From a virus (Duplodnaviria; Caudoviricetes): a stretch of DNA of 64,000 nucleotides. The stretch's first letter is position 1. Each line of letters starts with the position of its first letter. A program made the translations under genes and the position numbers. Below the pieces are notes generated by a model that was given only the letters and a program-made list of their open reading frames with translations, had not been told where the DNA came from and did no database searches. Shown here piece by piece: positions 2,753 through 62,869 of this stretch. Location of the stretch: IMG/VR virus record IMGVR_UViG_3300035182_001315; one strand, given 5' to 3'.

Positions 2753-3055
2753 ATGAAACTCGAAGAACTTTTAGAAAGAGCCAAGGACCTTATCCTGAAC
2801 GGAACAATCAAAGGCTACACTTCCCAAATGTTTGAGGAAGCTGTAAAGAACGACCCTGTTCTATTCGCAGAATTATTGGATGAAGTCGGCCAGCAAGTAA
2901 AGGATTCAGATAGCCACAAGCAAACCGTAAGCATTTACGGCGAAGAACTCTCCGGCGTGGCCCTTGCATTCCATATGCTGAAGGTCGCAGAAGAACAAGG
3001 GATACAGGAAAATTTTATCAGAAGCCTTGTCTACAAAAAATTAAGAATCCTTTAA
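2753..3055 (+). CDS. hypothetical protein
   Basis: 100-aa ORF abutting the previous gene. Confidence 0.7.
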   Translation: MKLEELLERAKDLILNGTIKGYTSQMFEEAVKNDPVLFAELLDEVGQQVKDSDSHKQTVSIYGEELSGVALAFHMLKVAEEQGIQENFIRSLVYKKLRIL

Positions 3056-3140
3056 CCCAACATATTCATGGCTGAAACAAATCCTTTTGTTGTCAGTGTA
3101 ATGACCATTGTGAATATTCTTGTGAGTAACATCAATTCTA
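3050..3140 (-). pseudogene. Diverged duplicate of the GNAT gene 3' end
   Basis: EFRIDVTHKNIHNGHYTDNKRICFSHEYVG vs KLRTDVTHKNVFNNHYTDNKRLCGSFEYIG, with many synonymous differences. Confidence 0.65.
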
Positions 3141-3614
3141 AATTCTATTTTCGCCGATGTACTCAAAACTACCACATAATCGCTTATTGTCTGTATAGTG
3201 ATTATTAAAAACATTTTTATGGGTAACATCGGTTCTTAATTTCTTATGTTTATTAGTTGGTTTCCATAGTGGGGATTTTTCACGATAATCTATCATGCGT
3301 GGGTGTGCTGTACGTGAGAAGTACCTGTGGCCCTGTTCCAGATGGATTTGCGCCAGTGCATCCGAAAACCTAACACCAATACCCAATCCTTGAAAGTCAG
3401 GCAGGATAACCGTCCTGTGACCTCTCCAGCCATTCTTGAAATACGGGTTCGGCATCGACATGGTTGCACCAAACGCCACAATCTCATCCTGCCAGATTCC
3501 TACATAACATCTGGCGACATTATTGATATCACCACTTAGATAATGATGGTTCTTAAACATGGGCCATATATGATAGCTCGCTCTGTATACTTCAATCCTG
3601 ATTTCTGGGCGGAC
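3138..3614 (-). CDS. GNAT-like acetyltransferase domain, probably expressed as a -1 frameshift fusion to the upstream ABC ATPase
   Basis: RTVILPDFQGLGIG acetyl-CoA motif. The frame stays open upstream of the Met at 3560 (VRPEIRIEVYRASYHIWP) back to a GGG-T9 run. Confidence 0.8.
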   Translation of the reverse strand, partial: VRPEIRIEVYRASYHIWPMFKNHHYLSGDINNVARCYVGIWQDEIVAFGATMSMPNPYFKNGWRGHRTVILPDFQGLGIGVRFSDALAQIHLEQGHRYFSRTAHPRMIDYREKSPLWKPTNKHKKLRTDVTHKNVFNNHYTDNKRLCGSFEYIGENRI

Positions 3615-23085: not shown

Positions 23086-23327
23086 AAATCGTCTTCAGGG
23101 TAATCTTCATCTCAGTACTCCAAAGCCATATCAAAATCCGGTTCAAAATCTTCATCTATTGGGTTATCATCCTGTAGTTCTTCAGGAGAAATATACAGGT
23201 CGAAATCGTCTTCAGGGTAATCTTCATCTGAGTACTCCAAAGCCATATCAAAATCCGGTTCAAAATCTTCATCTATTGGGTTATCATCCTGTAGTTCTTC
23301 AGGAGAAATATACAGGTCGAAATCGTC
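23086..23327. repeat. 117-bp tandem duplication (2 units + 8 nt)
   Basis: AAATCGTC recurs at 23086, 23203 and 23320; the units differ at one base (TCA/TGA codon). Confidence 0.9.
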
Positions 23328-40562: not shown

Positions 40563-41015
40563 TTAATCTATTTTTGTAACTATGCAGCGGTAGGTTCTAT
40601 TGCATTCGAGGATGCCTGTGGTGATGGCATGGAAGAGGGGTGATTGGTCGTCGTTCATTGCATCGAGAGCAAAGAATCGGTTGCCTCTTTCGGTTACGAA
40701 GTCCTTGTCTGGGCTTCCATGTCCATCTCGCAGGCCGACCTTATCGAATACAAGAGCTAAGGTACCAGTTGCGCAAGACATGCCCTTTACAGTCAGACTG
40801 CCATTCACATCCCATTCACAAAGGCCAGCGATAAGGCCGAGTTGTCCGAGGCAGCATAAACCGATAATTTCATTACCGCTCTTTATACCCAGTTGTCCTT
40901 TTGTCTGAAGTTCAGGATGTTCCCTGAGTGCTTTTATCCAAGCTTTTTGTATAGGGCCAAGTATCATGTTGTGTTGTTTTGATTTGTTTTGCGTATTCGT
41001 AGAGTTCAATACCAA
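40563..41015 (-). CDS. hypothetical protein
   Basis: WIKALR, LCCLG and MNDD motifs; real start probably MILGP. Confidence 0.6.
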   Translation of the reverse strand: MVLNSTNTQNKSKQHNMILGPIQKAWIKALREHPELQTKGQLGIKSGNEIIGLCCLGQLGLIAGLCEWDVNGSLTVKGMSCATGTLALVFDKVGLRDGHGSPDKDFVTERGNRFFALDAMNDDQSPLFHAITTGILECNRTYRCIVTKID

Positions 41016-41370
41016 TCATGGTGTTGGGTGTGTTTTTAAGAACTTGACTCAACACATACCAATTGCTTGCTTCAACAGCCAGTTGGAATGTATTGATTCG
41101 TTTCTTGTTATGGTCAACTGGAACCTTAGATATACTAACCGTTGAGAACTTTAGTTCGACTGATTTTTTCTTTTCGTAGTTTAAGAACCTAACGTCACCA
41201 GTTGAGGTTAGTTCAACCCCAGTATAATTCGAAGTCTGCTTCGTTCAACATCTTCAAGATGTTCTTTGGCGTAGCGTGAAACTTGATGCCATGGCTAAGC
41301 ATTTCATCTTCTTTAAGTGGCTTTGTTTCTGTCATGGTGGTAATGTTTCAACAAAGATAGGAACTCTTTT

Positions 41371-41583
41371 TTAGAGTTCCAAATATTCTTTTTTGGCTTG
41401 GTTAAGCCTTTCGATGGTTGCTGTAAGTTTCTCTTGCCATTTGGCCTTGGCATCATCGTTCTTGCAATTGTCGAAGATGAAGGTTTGTTTGTATATCAAT
41501 GCCTTTAGTCCGAGGGTTTTACCTCTGAGTGTTTTGGCTTTTTCCCAGCGTTCTTTGAGCTGGTCATACTCTTGGTCAGTCAT
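41371..41583 (-). CDS. hypothetical protein
   Basis: Start MTDQEYDQL. Confidence 0.6.
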   Translation of the reverse strand: MTDQEYDQLKERWEKAKTLRGKTLGLKALIYKQTFIFDNCKNDDAKAKWQEKLTATIERLNQAKKEYLEL

Positions 41584-41842
41584 CGTTGTCTTGGTTTTCG
41601 TATTGTTCAGGTGTGCAGAAGTGAGTACTGTTATATGAGTCTTCAATTCCCACCAGTGTTATGTTGGTATGCCATGAGTGGATATCCATTGATTCCAGTT
41701 CATAGGTCTCACCAATCTCAAGCAACTTGCGTGGGTCACGCCGTTCCACACGGTGAGAACCCCAGTTAACTTGGTCATCGCTTGCGCCGGTAAAGATAAT
41801 CTTATCTCCCAGTTGGATTGTGTTGATGTCAATGCAGTTCAT
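41576..41842 (-). CDS. hypothetical protein
   Basis: Real start MNCIDIN at 41842; the ORF-track extension is translated CRISPR repeat. Confidence 0.65.
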   Translation of the reverse strand: MNCIDINTIQLGDKIIFTGASDDQVNWGSHRVERRDPRKLLEIGETYELESMDIHSWHTNITLVGIEDSYNSTHFCTPEQYENQDNDD

Positions 41843-41869
41843 CGGTAGTATACTTTTCTTTCCAGTTGT

Positions 41870-42093
41870 GTTGTAAATAGCTTTCAAATTGTGGCCTTTT
41901 ACAATAGCATGTAAGACAGGTACAAGTTGTAAATAGCTTTCAAATTGTGGCCTTTTACAATCTTGATGGTTTTTGGGACGATGCATTTTTTGTTGTAAAT
42001 AGCTTTCAAATTGTGGCCTTTTACAATGGTATACCCTAAAACAATATAAGATGTTAGGTTGTAAATAGCTTTCAAATTGTGGCCTTTTACAAT
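41870..42093. CRISPR. CRISPR mini-array, 4 identical 36-bp repeats GTTGTAAATAGCTTTCAAATTGTGGCCTTTTACAAT
   Basis: Repeats at 41870-41905, 41926-41961, 41992-42027 and 42058-42093; unique spacers of 20, 30 and 30 nt; a further 27-nt unit ends at the partial repeat GTTGTAAAT (42121). Confidence 0.93.
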
Positions 42094-42120
42094 ACATAGA
42101 TATCTCTGTTTACTTCAAGA

Positions 42121-42231
42121 GTTGTAAATGGTTATTAACCAATTAATTTGAAAGAACTATTTTCTATCACAACGCATGATTTATTAATCTACGTTAACAT
42201 GATATAGCGATACACTTCGCATTTTATATTT
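42121..42231 (-). ncRNA. Anti-repeat / omega-RNA-like scaffold candidate
   Basis: 42145-42173 is complementary to the repeat (AATTTGAAAG..CTATTT..ACAAC); hairpins at 42207-42220 and 42130-42140. Confidence 0.65.
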
Positions 42232-43506
42232 CTAAGTTAAATCTAATTTTTGTAAACAATGTTTCTTTAGATTATTGGCAGCGTTCAAATCCCTCTCATT
42301 AATTACGCCACATTCACACACCCAGTTTCTATTCGCTAAGGTTAAATCTGTTTTCTTTTTACCACAAGCGCATGTCTTACTTGAAGCAAAAAACCTATCA
42401 GCTTTTAGAATATTTTTTCCTTGCCATTCAGCTTTATATGTGAGCATATTCATGAATGTTGCCGGTGCGGTATCTAAGATTGACTTGTTCAATCCTGATT
42501 TTTGCTTAATCATTTTTCCCGGCTTATCAACAGTACCACTTGCCGAGACGGTCATTCCTTTTATATTTAGGTCTTCAATACAAATGGTATTATAATCATT
42601 AATCAGTTTAGCGGATACGTTACTAAGGTAATCTTTTCTAATGTTGGCTATCTTCTCATGAATCTTAGCAACAACTAATTTTTGTTTCTTATATCCATTT
42701 GATTGCTTTTCTGCTCCGTTTACATACTTACGTTGAAGCTTTCTCTGCTCCTTAGCAAGGATTCTTTCCCAATCTTTAGTAATTGTTTGCCTCTCGATTT
42801 CGATACCATTTGAGAGTGTAGCAAAGGTTTTAAGCCCCCAATCCAGCCCAACGGTTGTTTCATCAATAATTTCTTTCTTTACTGGTAATTCAATTCCATT
42901 GTCTACAAGAATTGAAATGAAGAATTTCCCAGAAGATTCGACGCTTACAGTACACGTCTTTATTTTTCCATTAAATGGTCTATGAAGAATAATATTAACT
43001 GCTCCAATCTTAGGTATAATAACCAATTGCTTTTCAAAGTCAACTCTTACACCTTGCGAAAATTGGCAGGACTTTCTTGAAAATGTTTTGCTCTTGAATC
43101 TGGGAAATCCCGGCTTTTTACCTTGTTTTACATTGGTAAAGAAGTTTTTATAGGCTCTATCTAAATTTCCTAATGCGTCAATAATACTTTTTGCGGCAAT
43201 TTCTTTTAACCAAACCTTTTCTTTTTTAAGCGTTGGTACCAAATATGATAAATCGAACCCTGATAAATGTTTGGTACTTTTAATTAGTGAAATATTTTCC
43301 GATTGTATAACGCTTGTTGTTTTTTCAGCAACGCTTTGAGCTGTTACTTTTTTATATATAAAACCTCTGATATTATTTCCTTCATACAATTGCTTATTAA
43401 GGGATAACCCCCAATTGTAAATAAATCTTACAGACCCAAAAGACTTGAGGAAAAAGTCTACTTGTCCTTGTGTTGGTAAAATTCGATATTTAAAAGCTTT
43501 AATCAT
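42232..43506 (-). CDS. tnpB: TnpB / Cas12f-like RNA-guided RuvC endonuclease, CRISPR-associated
   Basis: KAFKYRILPT OrfB HTH start, GFPRFKSK, RuvC-I VGLDWGL, RuvC-II ICIEDL, zinc finger SSKTCACG..WVCECG, RuvC-III RDLNAA. Confidence 0.92.
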   Translation of the reverse strand: MIKAFKYRILPTQGQVDFFLKSFGSVRFIYNWGLSLNKQLYEGNNIRGFIYKKVTAQSVAEKTTSVIQSENISLIKSTKHLSGFDLSYLVPTLKKEKVWLKEIAAKSIIDALGNLDRAYKNFFTNVKQGKKPGFPRFKSKTFSRKSCQFSQGVRVDFEKQLVIIPKIGAVNIILHRPFNGKIKTCTVSVESSGKFFISILVDNGIELPVKKEIIDETTVGLDWGLKTFATLSNGIEIERQTITKDWERILAKEQRKLQRKYVNGAEKQSNGYKKQKLVVAKIHEKIANIRKDYLSNVSAKLINDYNTICIEDLNIKGMTVSASGTVDKPGKMIKQKSGLNKSILDTAPATFMNMLTYKAEWQGKNILKADRFFASSKTCACGKKKTDLTLANRNWVCECGVINERDLNAANNLKKHCLQKLDLT

Positions 43507-43513
43507 TTTATTT

Positions 43514-43526
43514 AGGCAAATATACT
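43514..43526 (-). promoter_or_regulatory. Bacteroidota-type -7 element upstream of tnpB
   Basis: TAGTATATTTG on the minus strand ~10 nt before the ATG. Confidence 0.55.
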
Positions 43527-43535
43527 AAAAATTTT

Positions 43536-43766
43536 TTATTTAAGTTTAAATCTTGATAATCTGAAAATTGGTCCAAACTTCTCTTTCCATTCTGTTACAC
43601 ATTCAATACACAGGAAGCTTTTTACATCAGCTCGCCCTTTAACGCTTTCCTTTCCGCTTTCACCCATGGCTATGGGTCTCTTGCAACATAGGCAGGTGCC
43701 ATCTCGTTTGAATGCTTCAACGTCTTTCCAGCGTTCGTGTCCTTCTTTCGGTGTGTGAAATGCCAT
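43536..43766 (-). CDS. small zinc-finger-like protein
   Basis: CLCC and CIEC. Confidence 0.65.
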   Translation of the reverse strand: MAFHTPKEGHERWKDVEAFKRDGTCLCCKRPIAMGESGKESVKGRADVKSFLCIECVTEWKEKFGPIFRLSRFKLK

Positions 43767-44285
43767 TTAGTTGTATATTTTATTTATCCGGTGAATCAAA
43801 AATTCTTCAAGTTCTGGCTCTCGGCCCACCTCATTGATAACCCTATCTACTATTCGGTCCCAGTAGATTTCCTGAATTCTCCACTCTGGTGTGCCTTTGT
43901 AATGGTCACCGCCTGAGTTGATGTAGTGGTCCAGCCAACTATGCATTCCCTCTAATATCTGTTCGTCTGTGAGTGCTAAGTTATATCTTTCTATGAAGAC
44001 TTCAAAATCTGTTTCCTCATTTAGATAATATACTTCGGTTGACCAAGCTGCTTCAGGCCCATCAATAAGCATATTTCTTCTTGGTAAAACCGTTACCGTT
44101 TCATTAAAATAATTCGTATAAAGGCTTTCTGAAAAGAAATAAAAGAAGAGTGTTTCAACATCACCACGTTTAAAGGTAAGTTGAATTGAACTGTTATATG
44201 ATGCATCATATAAAAATTTAAAACCGATTGCTTTAGCCCGTTCCTGAACACCATTAATGATTCTCATTTGGAACGAATTGAACAA
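43767..44285 (-). CDS. hypothetical protein
   Basis: 172-aa ORF. Confidence 0.65.
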   Translation of the reverse strand: MFNSFQMRIINGVQERAKAIGFKFLYDASYNSSIQLTFKRGDVETLFFYFFSESLYTNYFNETVTVLPRRNMLIDGPEAAWSTEVYYLNEETDFEVFIERYNLALTDEQILEGMHSWLDHYINSGGDHYKGTPEWRIQEIYWDRIVDRVINEVGREPELEEFLIHRINKIYN

Positions 44286-44417
44286 CTTATATATGCTTTC
44301 AGATATTATATTATAACTCCCATGCCTTTGAATTCTTGTTTCTTACATTCTGTGCATTCATGTAATTCTGAATAAGCTACCGAACCACCTTCTGGTGGGT
44401 TAGGAGTTGGATTTGTA

Positions 44418-44822
44418 TCAATGTTCTTCCACATATGGAATCCGAAATGACACTTGATTGCTTGGAAAATTAATTTTATCATATTCTGATAGATTCATTG
44501 CTTGCCCATACATTGCTTGCCCATACATTGCTTGCCCATACATTGGGCTTATGTATTCAAGAGAAAAGTAATCCTTAAGTATCCCCCGAATGAAGTCTCT
44601 TGCTTCATTCGCAGTTAAACCGAAATTATCCCTGATGAAAGCCCAGAGAGTCATGTTAACTACAAGTTTTCGTTCGACTCTCTCAAGGACGAATATCGGC
44701 ATTTTATTTGAATAAAAGAACAATCTATTCACAGCCTCTTCTGACAATTGCCTAACCTCAAAATTACCATACTGTCTAAAGAAATGCTTTCGTATTATAT
44801 CGGTGTATTCCTTATCAATCAT
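44418..44822 (-). CDS. hypothetical protein containing an in-frame 15-bp x3 repeat
   Basis: MYGQA x3. Confidence 0.65.
   Translation of the reverse strand: MIDKEYTDIIRKHFFRQYGNFEVRQLSEEAVNRLFFYSNKMPIFVLERVERKLVVNMTLWAFIRDNFGLTANEARDFIRGILKDYFSLEYISPMYGQAMYGQAMYGQAMNLSEYDKINFPSNQVSFRIPYVEEH
44496..44545. repeat. 15-bp tandem repeat x3
   Basis: CATTGCTTGCCCATA x3 plus CATTG. Confidence 0.9.
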
Positions 44823-61637: not shown

Positions 61638-61919
61638 TTAAAATATTGAGTCATCGCTATGACCGTGATTGAATGTTTTCAGAAATTCTTTATGAAATTC
61701 AAATCCAGCTTGAAACAATCTCAACGCATAATCCCATTGACCTTCGTATCTTTCTTGTGGATTGTTCTGTACCCAATCTTCATACGCAAGTTTTACTGTA
61801 TGGTCAACTATCAATGGATAATAGTAAACCCAGCAATGGTCACAACTGTGAGCACATTCTGATTCACCTTCTATCTGGCGCTGGCAATATACTGGTGGGT
61901 CTAATGGACTTAAACTCAT
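61638..61919 (-). CDS. hypothetical protein
   Basis: YCQRQ..CAHSCDHC. Confidence 0.6.
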   Translation of the reverse strand: MSLSPLDPPVYCQRQIEGESECAHSCDHCWVYYYPLIVDHTVKLAYEDWVQNNPQERYEGQWDYALRLFQAGFEFHKEFLKTFNHGHSDDSIF

Positions 61920-62869
61920 AGTCTGATTGATTGTACGTACTCGATGTGTTCCTTGCTCATCGGTGTGCCGGTAAAGTTCAGCGTCAGAAATGTTGTAATG
62001 ATATCCGCATCCGTAGCTGTTTCCTGTAGCTCACCTACTGCAAGGTTATTGTATTCTAAGAACTTGTGCTGCGCATTTGCAGACAAGTCTTTGTAATAGT
62101 TTCCGAATTCATCTGGGAACTTGTTCTGAACAAATTCCAACAGGGCATTATAACGTTGCTTTCCATCAATACAATCCCTGTCATAGCCATGGCCGATTCT
62201 TTTGATTTGGTCAACGATGCTGGCCCATGAATTATACTTGAAGATGAACTTTCCAATTTCGATTCCGTTATAGATGCTGTGAATAAGCAATTGCTTTTGT
62301 TCAAGCGTCCAAACATGCCCACGCTGATAGAACACTCTTTTTCCAGTGGCATCAACCACTGATGGGTCGAAGTTTAATCCACCATAGGTCTTACCAAGAA
62401 GCTCCTTGTCACCGGGAGACTTGCCATCAATAATCTTGGTTGATACCAAGTCGTATGTATCATCCAAACGGCCATATCCGCCGCTGAAGAACAACGATTC
62501 AACCATTGAGGAAATGAAGGTTACCCTTAGTTTCGTTTTGAAAGGGTCAGCACCGCATTCACGGGTTGAATGCTTTACGTTTACCGGCATGTAAAACCCA
62601 TCAGTATCAACAAACTTTATCTCACTGGGCTGGCTCCTGTAAAATGTTTTAACACCAACAATTTCACCATGCTTTGGGTGGTTGAATAATGCAACAACCT
62701 CGCCGCTCTCGTGAAACACCTTAGGTTCATCGGTATATACCCATTCAGCCTTCTTACCCTTAACCATAAGTTCAGACTTTCTGGCTGTGTATTCTACCCT
62801 TACCTCAACTGCATTACCCACCTTTAATGGGGTGGCAAGTTTTGCGCTTATGGCTTCTTGTTTGGTCAT
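61916..62869 (-). CDS. DUF262 (ParB/Srx-like) domain protein
   Basis: YQRGHVW, LIHSIYNGIEIG, IDGKQR, FLTLN. Confidence 0.8.
   Translation of the reverse strand: MTKQEAISAKLATPLKVGNAVEVRVEYTARKSELMVKGKKAEWVYTDEPKVFHESGEVVALFNHPKHGEIVGVKTFYRSQPSEIKFVDTDGFYMPVNVKHSTRECGADPFKTKLRVTFISSMVESLFFSGGYGRLDDTYDLVSTKIIDGKSPGDKELLGKTYGGLNFDPSVVDATGKRVFYQRGHVWTLEQKQLLIHSIYNGIEIGKFIFKYNSWASIVDQIKRIGHGYDRDCIDGKQRYNALLEFVQNKFPDEFGNYYKDLSANAQHKFLEYNNLAVGELQETATDADIITTFLTLNFTGTPMSKEHIEYVQSIRL

Follow-up and report, generated by a model that had tools for sequence, protein, structure and literature searches.

A gene for an RNA-guided nuclease of the TnpB type that stands directly before an array of clustered regularly interspaced short palindromic repeats (CRISPR) on viral DNA raises the question of whether gene and array are mere neighbours or the parts of one system. 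We addressed this question for a stretch of 64,000 nt from a virus (Duplodnaviria; Caudoviricetes; IMG/VR record IMGVR_UViG_3300035182_001315), the whole of which is referred to here as the window, and for the locus that it carries between positions 41,870 and 43,506. We judge, with a probability of roughly three in four, that this locus is a domesticated phage-borne TnpB working as a minimal type V-like CRISPR effector of the transposon-CRISPR intermediate (TranC) type. An earlier reading made from the letters of the window without database searches (the sequence-only reading) had proposed an intermediate on the way from TnpB to Cas12, and this proposal is now supported by an array beside a related protein (P0122), by a difference in spacers in a second contig (L026) and by the position of a handle at the end of the guide-RNA scaffold; the idea itself is no longer new.

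The array and the turnover of its spacers

The locus was present in four public sequencing runs (X1-X4) from sediment and microbial-mat metagenomes and was compared with contigs from other sources, among them L026 (another Joint Genome Institute metagenome), L027 and L028. Four identical 36-nt repeats separated by transcribed-strand spacers of 30, 30 and 20 nt begin 138 nt past the tnpB stop codon, which confirms at 41870-42093 the arrangement described from the letters alone. The parts of the locus, in the direction of its genes, are as follows.

42232..43506, minus strand: tnpB-type RNA-guided nuclease gene encoding a protein of 424 amino acids (aa), P0001 (open reading frame, ORF; Pfam and NCBIfam TnpB domains; AlphaFold, AF2, model)
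42121..42243, minus strand: omega-RNA scaffold, like tracrRNA (trans-activating CRISPR RNA), 5′ limit uncertain (alignable with both L028 scaffold copies; RNAalifold)
42121..42133, minus strand: cis guide-adjacent handle AACCATTTACAAC at the scaffold end (last 9 nt match the repeat end)
42094..42120, minus strand: 27-nt unit S0, in the native omega-RNA guide position by its place between scaffold end and repeat 1
42058..42093, minus strand: repeat 1, gene-proximal (identical 36-nt repeat)
42028..42057, minus strand: spacer S1, 30 nt (present between non-repeat flanks in one 151-nt record, run X2; replaced in L026)
41992..42027, minus strand: repeat 2 (identical 36-nt repeat)
41962..41991, minus strand: spacer S2, 30 nt (present between non-repeat flanks in one 151-nt record, run X1; absent in L026)
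41926..41961, minus strand: repeat 3 (identical 36-nt repeat)
41906..41925, minus strand: spacer S3, 20 nt (common to L026 except for one single nucleotide polymorphism, SNP)
41870..41905, minus strand: repeat 4, distal (identical 36-nt repeat; the next gene's ATG follows after 27 nt)

Contig L026 encodes an identical protein within flanks identical to those of the window, and its array has three repeats, with a different 30-nt gene-proximal spacer (S1′) followed by S3 with the one SNP; the array of L027 is that of the window (S1-S2-S3). Divergent leader-proximal spacers together with a shared trailer spacer are the usual sign of polarised acquisition, and the array shows this polarised pattern of an active array, S1-S2-S3 in one contig and S1′-S3 in another. 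The sequence-only reading had held that spacers invariant across related phages would count against it; the gene-proximal difference in L026 is the opposite outcome.

We also noted contigs of 246-281 nt in runs X1, X2 and X4, aligned to 41870-41904 or 42058-42092, that contain a repeat-like 35-mer with 2 mismatches between unrelated flanks. Their depth equals that of the phage in the three samples (15.4, 6.9 and 7.2, compared with 14-17, 6-7 and 5-6), and neither the window nor any locus compared contains their flanks. These contigs may mark where a second array ends at another place in this phage's genome.

A conserved scaffold that ends like the repeat

The gap between tnpB and the array is a conserved, structured omega-RNA scaffold. 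The 111 nt past the tnpB stop codon align with the region after the gene for a related protein, P0003 (contig L028), and with a stand-alone second copy 1.6 kb further along L028, and RNAalifold of the window scaffold with the L028 copies gave 20 pairs, 7 of them with compensatory changes. Single-sequence folding of the tnpB 3′ region was uninformative (z = -0.6), and an Rfam search over 41000-44500 returned nothing meaningful.

This scaffold and every repeat close with an identical stretch of 9 nt, ATTTACAAC, and the guide or the spacer starts at the very next base. By our own arithmetic, a given 9-mer would occupy a fixed position by chance with a probability of about 4e-6. The repeat thus mimics the handle. 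P0004, an array-less member of the same clade (contig L029), has the sequence CATTTACAAG ending 115 nt past its stop codon, compared with 111 nt for the handle of the window; a nearly identical handle at a similar distance in an array-less contig is therefore ancestral to the clade, and the repeat would most simply be a derivative of the omega-RNA handle.

The sequence-only reading had placed the array exactly where the guide of an omega-RNA would be. The array region does lie directly after a scaffold with the same 9-nt end as the repeat, but the array is not a replacement, as a complete cis scaffold and its 27-nt guide, S0, remain in front of it. S0 has no match in the window, and its exact 20-22-mers are absent from IMG/VR.

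Two further observations concern the scaffold. A 10-bp tandem duplication of the handle (CATTTACAAC, transcribed strand) maps to window position 42120/42121; the variant occurs in L026 (5607-5739) and in run X2, and segregates in the phage population. On L028, the second omega-RNA scaffold (2982-3184) lies 1.6 kb downstream of that contig's tnpB; after it, in guide position, comes a 17-nt segment that ends exactly at the start of a tRNA-Met gene (3110) within a cluster of seven tRNA genes, and RNase P cleavage of the tRNA could set the 3′ end of this 17-nt guide.

The encoded protein is an intact TnpB

P0001 is an intact canonical TnpB. Pfam places HTH_OrfB_IS605, OrfB_IS605 and the Cas12f1-like_TNB zinc ribbon above their cut-offs, in the order of the TnpB family (helix-turn-helix (HTH), OrfB_IS605 with the RuvC nuclease, zinc ribbon), and NCBIfam guided_TnpB scores 274 bits (cut-off 100). 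These matches bear out the IS200/IS605 OrfB architecture that had been read from the 424-aa ORF; the three acidic RuvC residues, likewise described there as intact, are D222, E311 and D406, and all three occupy invariant columns in alignments of 12 and 52 sequences. The PADLOC profile for Cas12u4 and one Cas12f profile gave about 257 bits, not above the TnpB profiles.

The AF2 model of P0001 (mean predicted local distance difference test, pLDDT, 86.6) matches the TnpBs of ISFba1 and ISDra2 best, with template modelling (TM) scores of 0.79-0.86, compared with about 0.65 for Cas12f, 0.56-0.59 for LaTranC and 0.29-0.34 for CasLambda, so the protein is nearer to canonical TnpB than to CasLambda, as had been expected. 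By sequence, the best solved relative is an RNA-guided nuclease designed by artificial intelligence (9yyg, E 8e-46); solved ISDra2-type TnpBs match with E of about 1e-42, and the RuvC half, with its GTVxxPGKxxxQKSGLN insert, aligns to RdCas12n (9j09, E 6e-45). Weaker matches were found to LaTranC (E 2.5e-9), Cas12m (5e-7) and Cas12f (about 0.05). An insert of about 35 aa after the first helix, seen in the letters beforehand, proved to be real and 33 residues long:

43276..43374, minus strand: codons for a lineage-specific 33-residue insert (residues 45-77) in the REC-like region, between helices 1 and 2 (alignments, model)

Residues 45-77 are missing from all aligned homologues (11 and 51 in the two alignments) and have pLDDT below 50.

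Arrays recur among the closest relatives

P0001 has few close relatives. Among 5.8 billion protein clusters we found one identical copy, and the next nearest was not above 52% identity; a search of genome contigs with P0001 alone yielded only four distant relatives. In a quick maximum-likelihood tree of 74 TnpBs, P0001, P0003, P0122 and P0004 form one split with a Shimodaira-Hasegawa-like approximate likelihood ratio test (SH-aLRT) value of 99, and these four alone have the motif ADRFFASSK in common. A CxC zinc motif was dropped as a signature of the clade, as it is present in other TnpBs too.

The association of effector and array recurs in this clade. The gene for P0122 (423 aa, 43% identity) has small ORFs around it on contig L043, one with a match to a PHROG family, and is followed about 150 nt past its stop codon by an array of its own, with three 36-nt repeats of unrelated sequence and two 30-nt spacers; the distal repeat is degenerate, and a 24-mer of the L043 repeat is absent from IMG/VR. 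P0003 (52% identity, L028) has, besides the second scaffold copy, a handle that is duplicated once, 42 nt downstream, as a proto-repeat. The sequence-only reading had also named as evidence against itself the case that all closest homologues were ordinary array-less TnpBs, and the array of P0122 and the proto-repeat and second scaffold of P0003 show that this is not so. L028 and L043 share no gene with the window apart from the cassette, which therefore sits in different genetic backgrounds. A downstream array was found at 0 of about 105 other, more distant TnpB loci (25 viral and 80 metagenomic), and homologues in Arachidicoccus soli with 43% identity are ordinary multi-copy IS605 elements beside a Y1 TnpA.

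On L029 (4889-6137), a probable frameshift divides the array-less P0004 into two ORFs, of 51 aa (HTH) and 378 aa, and the genes around it encode glycosyltransferases and methyltransferases. Outside the clade, a 2.7-kb metagenome contig (L069) has a different TnpB gene (39% identity) and, ending 35 nt upstream of it, an unrelated CRISPR array of eight repeats of about 37 nt (314-880). This is either another association of TnpB with an array or an insertion sequence (IS) that inserted beside an array.

Spacer matches and a candidate target motif

Contigs of the four runs were aligned to the locus. S1 (run X2) and S2 (run X1) each occur once, in single 151-nt records with non-repeat flanks, and in spacer orientation TCTTTTT stands 5′ of both; the S1 target has a G+C content of about 60% in one of its flanks. 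The spacers within the array are preceded by ...TTTACAAC and not by TCTTTTT. TnpB and Cas12 use a 5′ motif on the non-target strand, and TCTTTTT would be a candidate T-rich target-adjacent motif (TAM).

Elsewhere the spacers found no counterpart. Searching them against phage sequences had been suggested beforehand as a check and gave no phage match: a blastn comparison of locus and array with 50,697 phage records returned no matches or only chance-level ones, exact 20-22-mers of S1, S2, S1′ and S3 are absent from IMG/VR, and the window itself has no match to any spacer.

Proposed mechanism and the evidence against it

In the reading that we favour, a phage TnpB serving as a minimal CRISPR effector, the repeat would pair with the scaffold, and part of the scaffold is collinear with the complement of the repeat:

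42145..42173, minus strand: putative anti-repeat inside the scaffold (GUUGUGA..AUAG..CUUUCAAAUU), by collinear pairing with the 3′ two-thirds of the repeat

The predicted pairing comprises 7, 4-6 and 10 bp, the last a perfect 10-mer complement. The duplex of scaffold and repeat has a calculated energy of -22 kcal/mol, a value reached by 2 of 1000 shuffled repeats and by 4 of 659 other segments of the phage, and would fit a tracr-like pairing whose exact form is conjectural. Our first model, with a terminal stem GUUGUGA/UUACAAC, conflicts with the covarying stem and was kept only as a possible alternative or pseudoknot.

The tnpB gene, the scaffold and the array would probably be transcribed in one direction from a promoter upstream of tnpB. 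In a cis mode the scaffold would act as a normal omega-RNA, with S0 (27 nt) as its guide. In a trans mode it would be tracr-like: the anti-repeat would pair with the repeat, and the last nucleotides of the repeat (ATTTACAAC) would replace the guide-adjacent handle of the scaffold and present a spacer of 20-30 nt to the RuvC nuclease. Targets would be double-stranded DNA with a T-rich motif 5′ of the protospacer (candidate TCTTTTT), and the array itself would be spared because its spacers are preceded by ...TTTACAAC. The repeat would have been born in place by duplication of the omega-RNA handle and not taken from a host CRISPR, spacers would turn over at the gene-proximal end by a mechanism acting in trans, and the host may help in their acquisition. 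The likely use would be the cutting of co-occurring DNA, for example that of rival phages or other mobile elements.

Several results weigh against this scheme. The scaffold without its 3′ strand pairs with the repeat only weakly (-12.2 kcal/mol), the duplex of scaffold and repeat in L043 is no better than shuffles (121 of 1000), and the covarying RNAalifold stem uses GUGAUA, which is part of the proposed anti-repeat; owing to this overlap the pairing scheme is not settled. Each protospacer is one read-length record of low depth, the spacers match no phage or viral contig in the collections searched, and on the other strand the shared flank is a 3′ AAAAAGA, as for a type II system. The tree that unites the clade is a quick search with long branches. 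Finally, adaptation genes were not found in the 20 ORFs tested, so that the turnover of spacers has no known mechanism.

Alternative explanations of the array

The array could instead be functionless, left over when the 3′ end of the omega-RNA slipped or was duplicated, with a TnpB that uses the cis guide S0 only or is decaying and with contigs that differ through random deletion and recombination. The 10-bp handle duplication that segregates in the population, the single duplicated handle of L028 and the length of S3, only 20 nt, are what such a process would leave behind. The four repeats are, however, 100% identical, the 30-nt spacer length is strict and recurs in L043, the novel 30-nt spacer of L026 is more than a deletion, the foreign DNA matched by S1 and S2 has a flank in common, and the nuclease is intact; we therefore regard an inert array as unlikely.

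A second explanation would make TnpB a mere neighbour with its own cis omega-RNA, beside a mini-array of the phage that exploits the CRISPR-Cas machinery of a host (for example type II-C or VI-B of Bacteroidota) and is used by the host effector and Cas1-Cas2. Superficially the 36-nt repeat, the 30-nt spacers and the GTTG...CAAT ends (plus strand) resemble such repeats, acquisition must come from elsewhere given that no adaptation genes lie nearby, and the shared protospacer flank can also be read on the plus strand as a 3′ AAAAAGA protospacer-adjacent motif (PAM). A host array of this kind was searched for and not found: none of 185,579 species-representative genomes has the exact repeat, and an evenly drawn sample of 401 Bacteroidota genomes has no copy of it with up to 3 mismatches. 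The exact repeat is likewise absent from IMG/VR, and a 24-mer of it is absent from metagenome contigs in a collection that evidently lacks the source samples. Moreover, the repeat ends as the adjacent scaffold ends, with a handle that is ancestral in the clade, and a relative with a wholly different repeat (L043) keeps the layout of gene, scaffold and array, all of which makes borrowing from a host very unlikely.

Least likely of the three is a mainly selfish homing device, whose guides would cut cassette-free alleles of sibling phages in co-infection so that the cassette is copied in during repair, in the manner of phage homing endonucleases: the established role of TnpB is homing at the empty donor site and transposon retention, the cassette has 32-35% G+C, below the 40-42% of its flanks, related cassettes occur in unrelated phage contexts and the spacer matches are low-abundance DNA of the same samples, but no spacer, S0 included, matches the window or any related phage contig compared, one flank of the S1 target with its roughly 60% G+C is unlike this phage, and several changing spacers are unneeded for one site.

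Genomic context

Upstream of tnpB we identified one putative promoter element:

43517..43524, minus strand: TAtaTTTG box, candidate Bacteroidota-type -7 promoter element (by motif)

This is the only TAnnTTTG on the minus strand of 41800-43700, starting at 43524 just before the tnpB ATG, and it agrees with the promoter element of its own that the sequence-only reading had assigned to the gene. A Bacteroidota host and a single transcription unit would fit such a box. A scan for sigma-70 promoters and terminators gave no signal above shuffle level.

The upstream gene lies only 30 nt from the tnpB start codon, and there is therefore no room for the left end of an IS. The absence of tnpA, cas1, cas2 and cas4 nearby, also described beforehand, held for the 20 ORFs tested: Y1 transposase and cas1, cas2 and cas4 domains were not found in ten flanking ORFs and ten window ORFs of at least 230 aa. 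Of the hallmarks of an IS200/IS605 mobile element, Y1_Tnp is missing from the ten flanking ORFs, and the adaptation module of a complete type V CRISPR-Cas system was not found in the 20 window ORFs.

The window looks like an accessory region of a large phage, with genes for a polynucleotide kinase, a nicotinamide phosphoribosyltransferase, a ClpB-like ATPase and a dCMP deaminase and many small ORFs. It also contains a perfect 15-nt tandem repeat of 3.3 copies (44496-44545), which encodes a repeated MYGQA motif in a 134-aa ORF (44418-44822, minus strand), and a 117-nt tandem duplication of 2.1 copies that are 99% identical (23086-23327). A 317-aa ORF at 61916-62869 has a GmrSD N-terminal (DUF262-type) domain and is phage-encoded; GmrSD is a family of restriction enzymes that depend on DNA modification.

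Comparison with known systems

With the canonical TnpBs of IS200/IS605 elements (references ISDra2 and ISFba1; PDB 8bf8, 8h1j, 8exa, 8iaz), P0001 shares fold, domain order, catalytic triad and zinc ribbon, and in both a guide follows a structured RNA scaffold at the gene's 3′ end. Unlike them, it has no TnpA that we could find, an array after the guide position and a 33-residue insert in the protein. Cas12f (V-F) and Cas12n (V-U4) descend from TnpB, are of miniature size and have their tracrRNA encoded between gene and array. The locus resembles them in having a miniature TnpB-derived effector with a putative tracr-like RNA in that place, whereas P0001 lacks expanded REC and WED domains and its TM score with Cas12f lies below that with TnpB. 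Viruses also carry mini-CRISPR arrays without cas genes, and huge phages carry CasPhi (Cas12j) and CasLambda; with these systems the locus shares a short array encoded by a phage, the lack of an adaptation module and a presumed part in conflict between mobile elements. The array of the window differs in being coupled, physically and by sequence, to a small effector and scaffold of its own.

The closest parallel in layout is offered by TranC, TnpB-derived nucleases with CRISPR arrays whose right-end RNA (reRNA) is functionally split into a tracrRNA plus a crRNA (CRISPR RNA) (bioRxiv 10.64898/2026.03.27.714800; PMC13565253). According to these sources, the class has been known since 2025 and has arrays of 3-20 repeats of 32-38 nt; one member, CauTranC9 (bioRxiv 10.64898/2026.03.27.714800), is a protein of about 414 aa without expanded domains, encoded in a Caudoviricetes genome next to five 38-bp repeats with phage-matching spacers and, as that account has it, no associated adaptation genes. 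The locus and TranC have in common a TnpB-like effector by a short CRISPR array, the lack of adaptation genes and, if the proposed pairing holds, the logic of an omega-RNA or reRNA split into a tracr-like part and a crRNA; CauTranC9, also from a phage, is close in size to the 424-aa protein of the window, and the described repeats of TranC clade 9 are 38 nt long, compared with 36 nt here. Unlike TranC, the locus keeps a complete cis omega-RNA with its own guide before the array. LaTranC (PDB 9jfo, 9jfq), the sole TranC member that we compared with P0001, is remote from it (E 2.5e-9 and TM 0.56-0.59, compared with about 1e-42 and 0.79-0.86 for the TnpB of ISDra2).

Implications for the origin of CRISPR effectors

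The class to which we assign the locus is already known, a phage-borne member included, and the current picture of it is unchanged. Within this class the locus would be a natural example in which a cis omega-RNA and an array coexist, and its effector, an essentially unmodified TnpB, is a candidate 424-aa programmable nuclease. Among its useful features are a repeat that can be traced to the omega-RNA handle, natural turnover of spacers and a candidate T-rich TAM from the same metagenomes, which make it a test case for how a transposon guide RNA may turn into a CRISPR repeat and how arrays without cas1 and cas2 may gain spacers.

More tentatively, at clearly less than even odds, the four members of the clade, each on DNA that is phage-like or mobile, may show stage by stage how an omega-RNA gave rise to a CRISPR array, in the order L029, L028, window, L043. 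L029 would stand for the plain scaffold with its handle, L028 for a handle duplicated once together with a second whole scaffold copy, the window for a cis omega-RNA that is complete and is joined by an array of four repeats, each a shortened version of the scaffold's terminal part, and L043 for an array without a recognisable cis handle. If this series is true, phages would be a place where TnpB repeatedly becomes a CRISPR effector, and the repeats of such systems would come from the guide-adjacent handle and not from captured host arrays.

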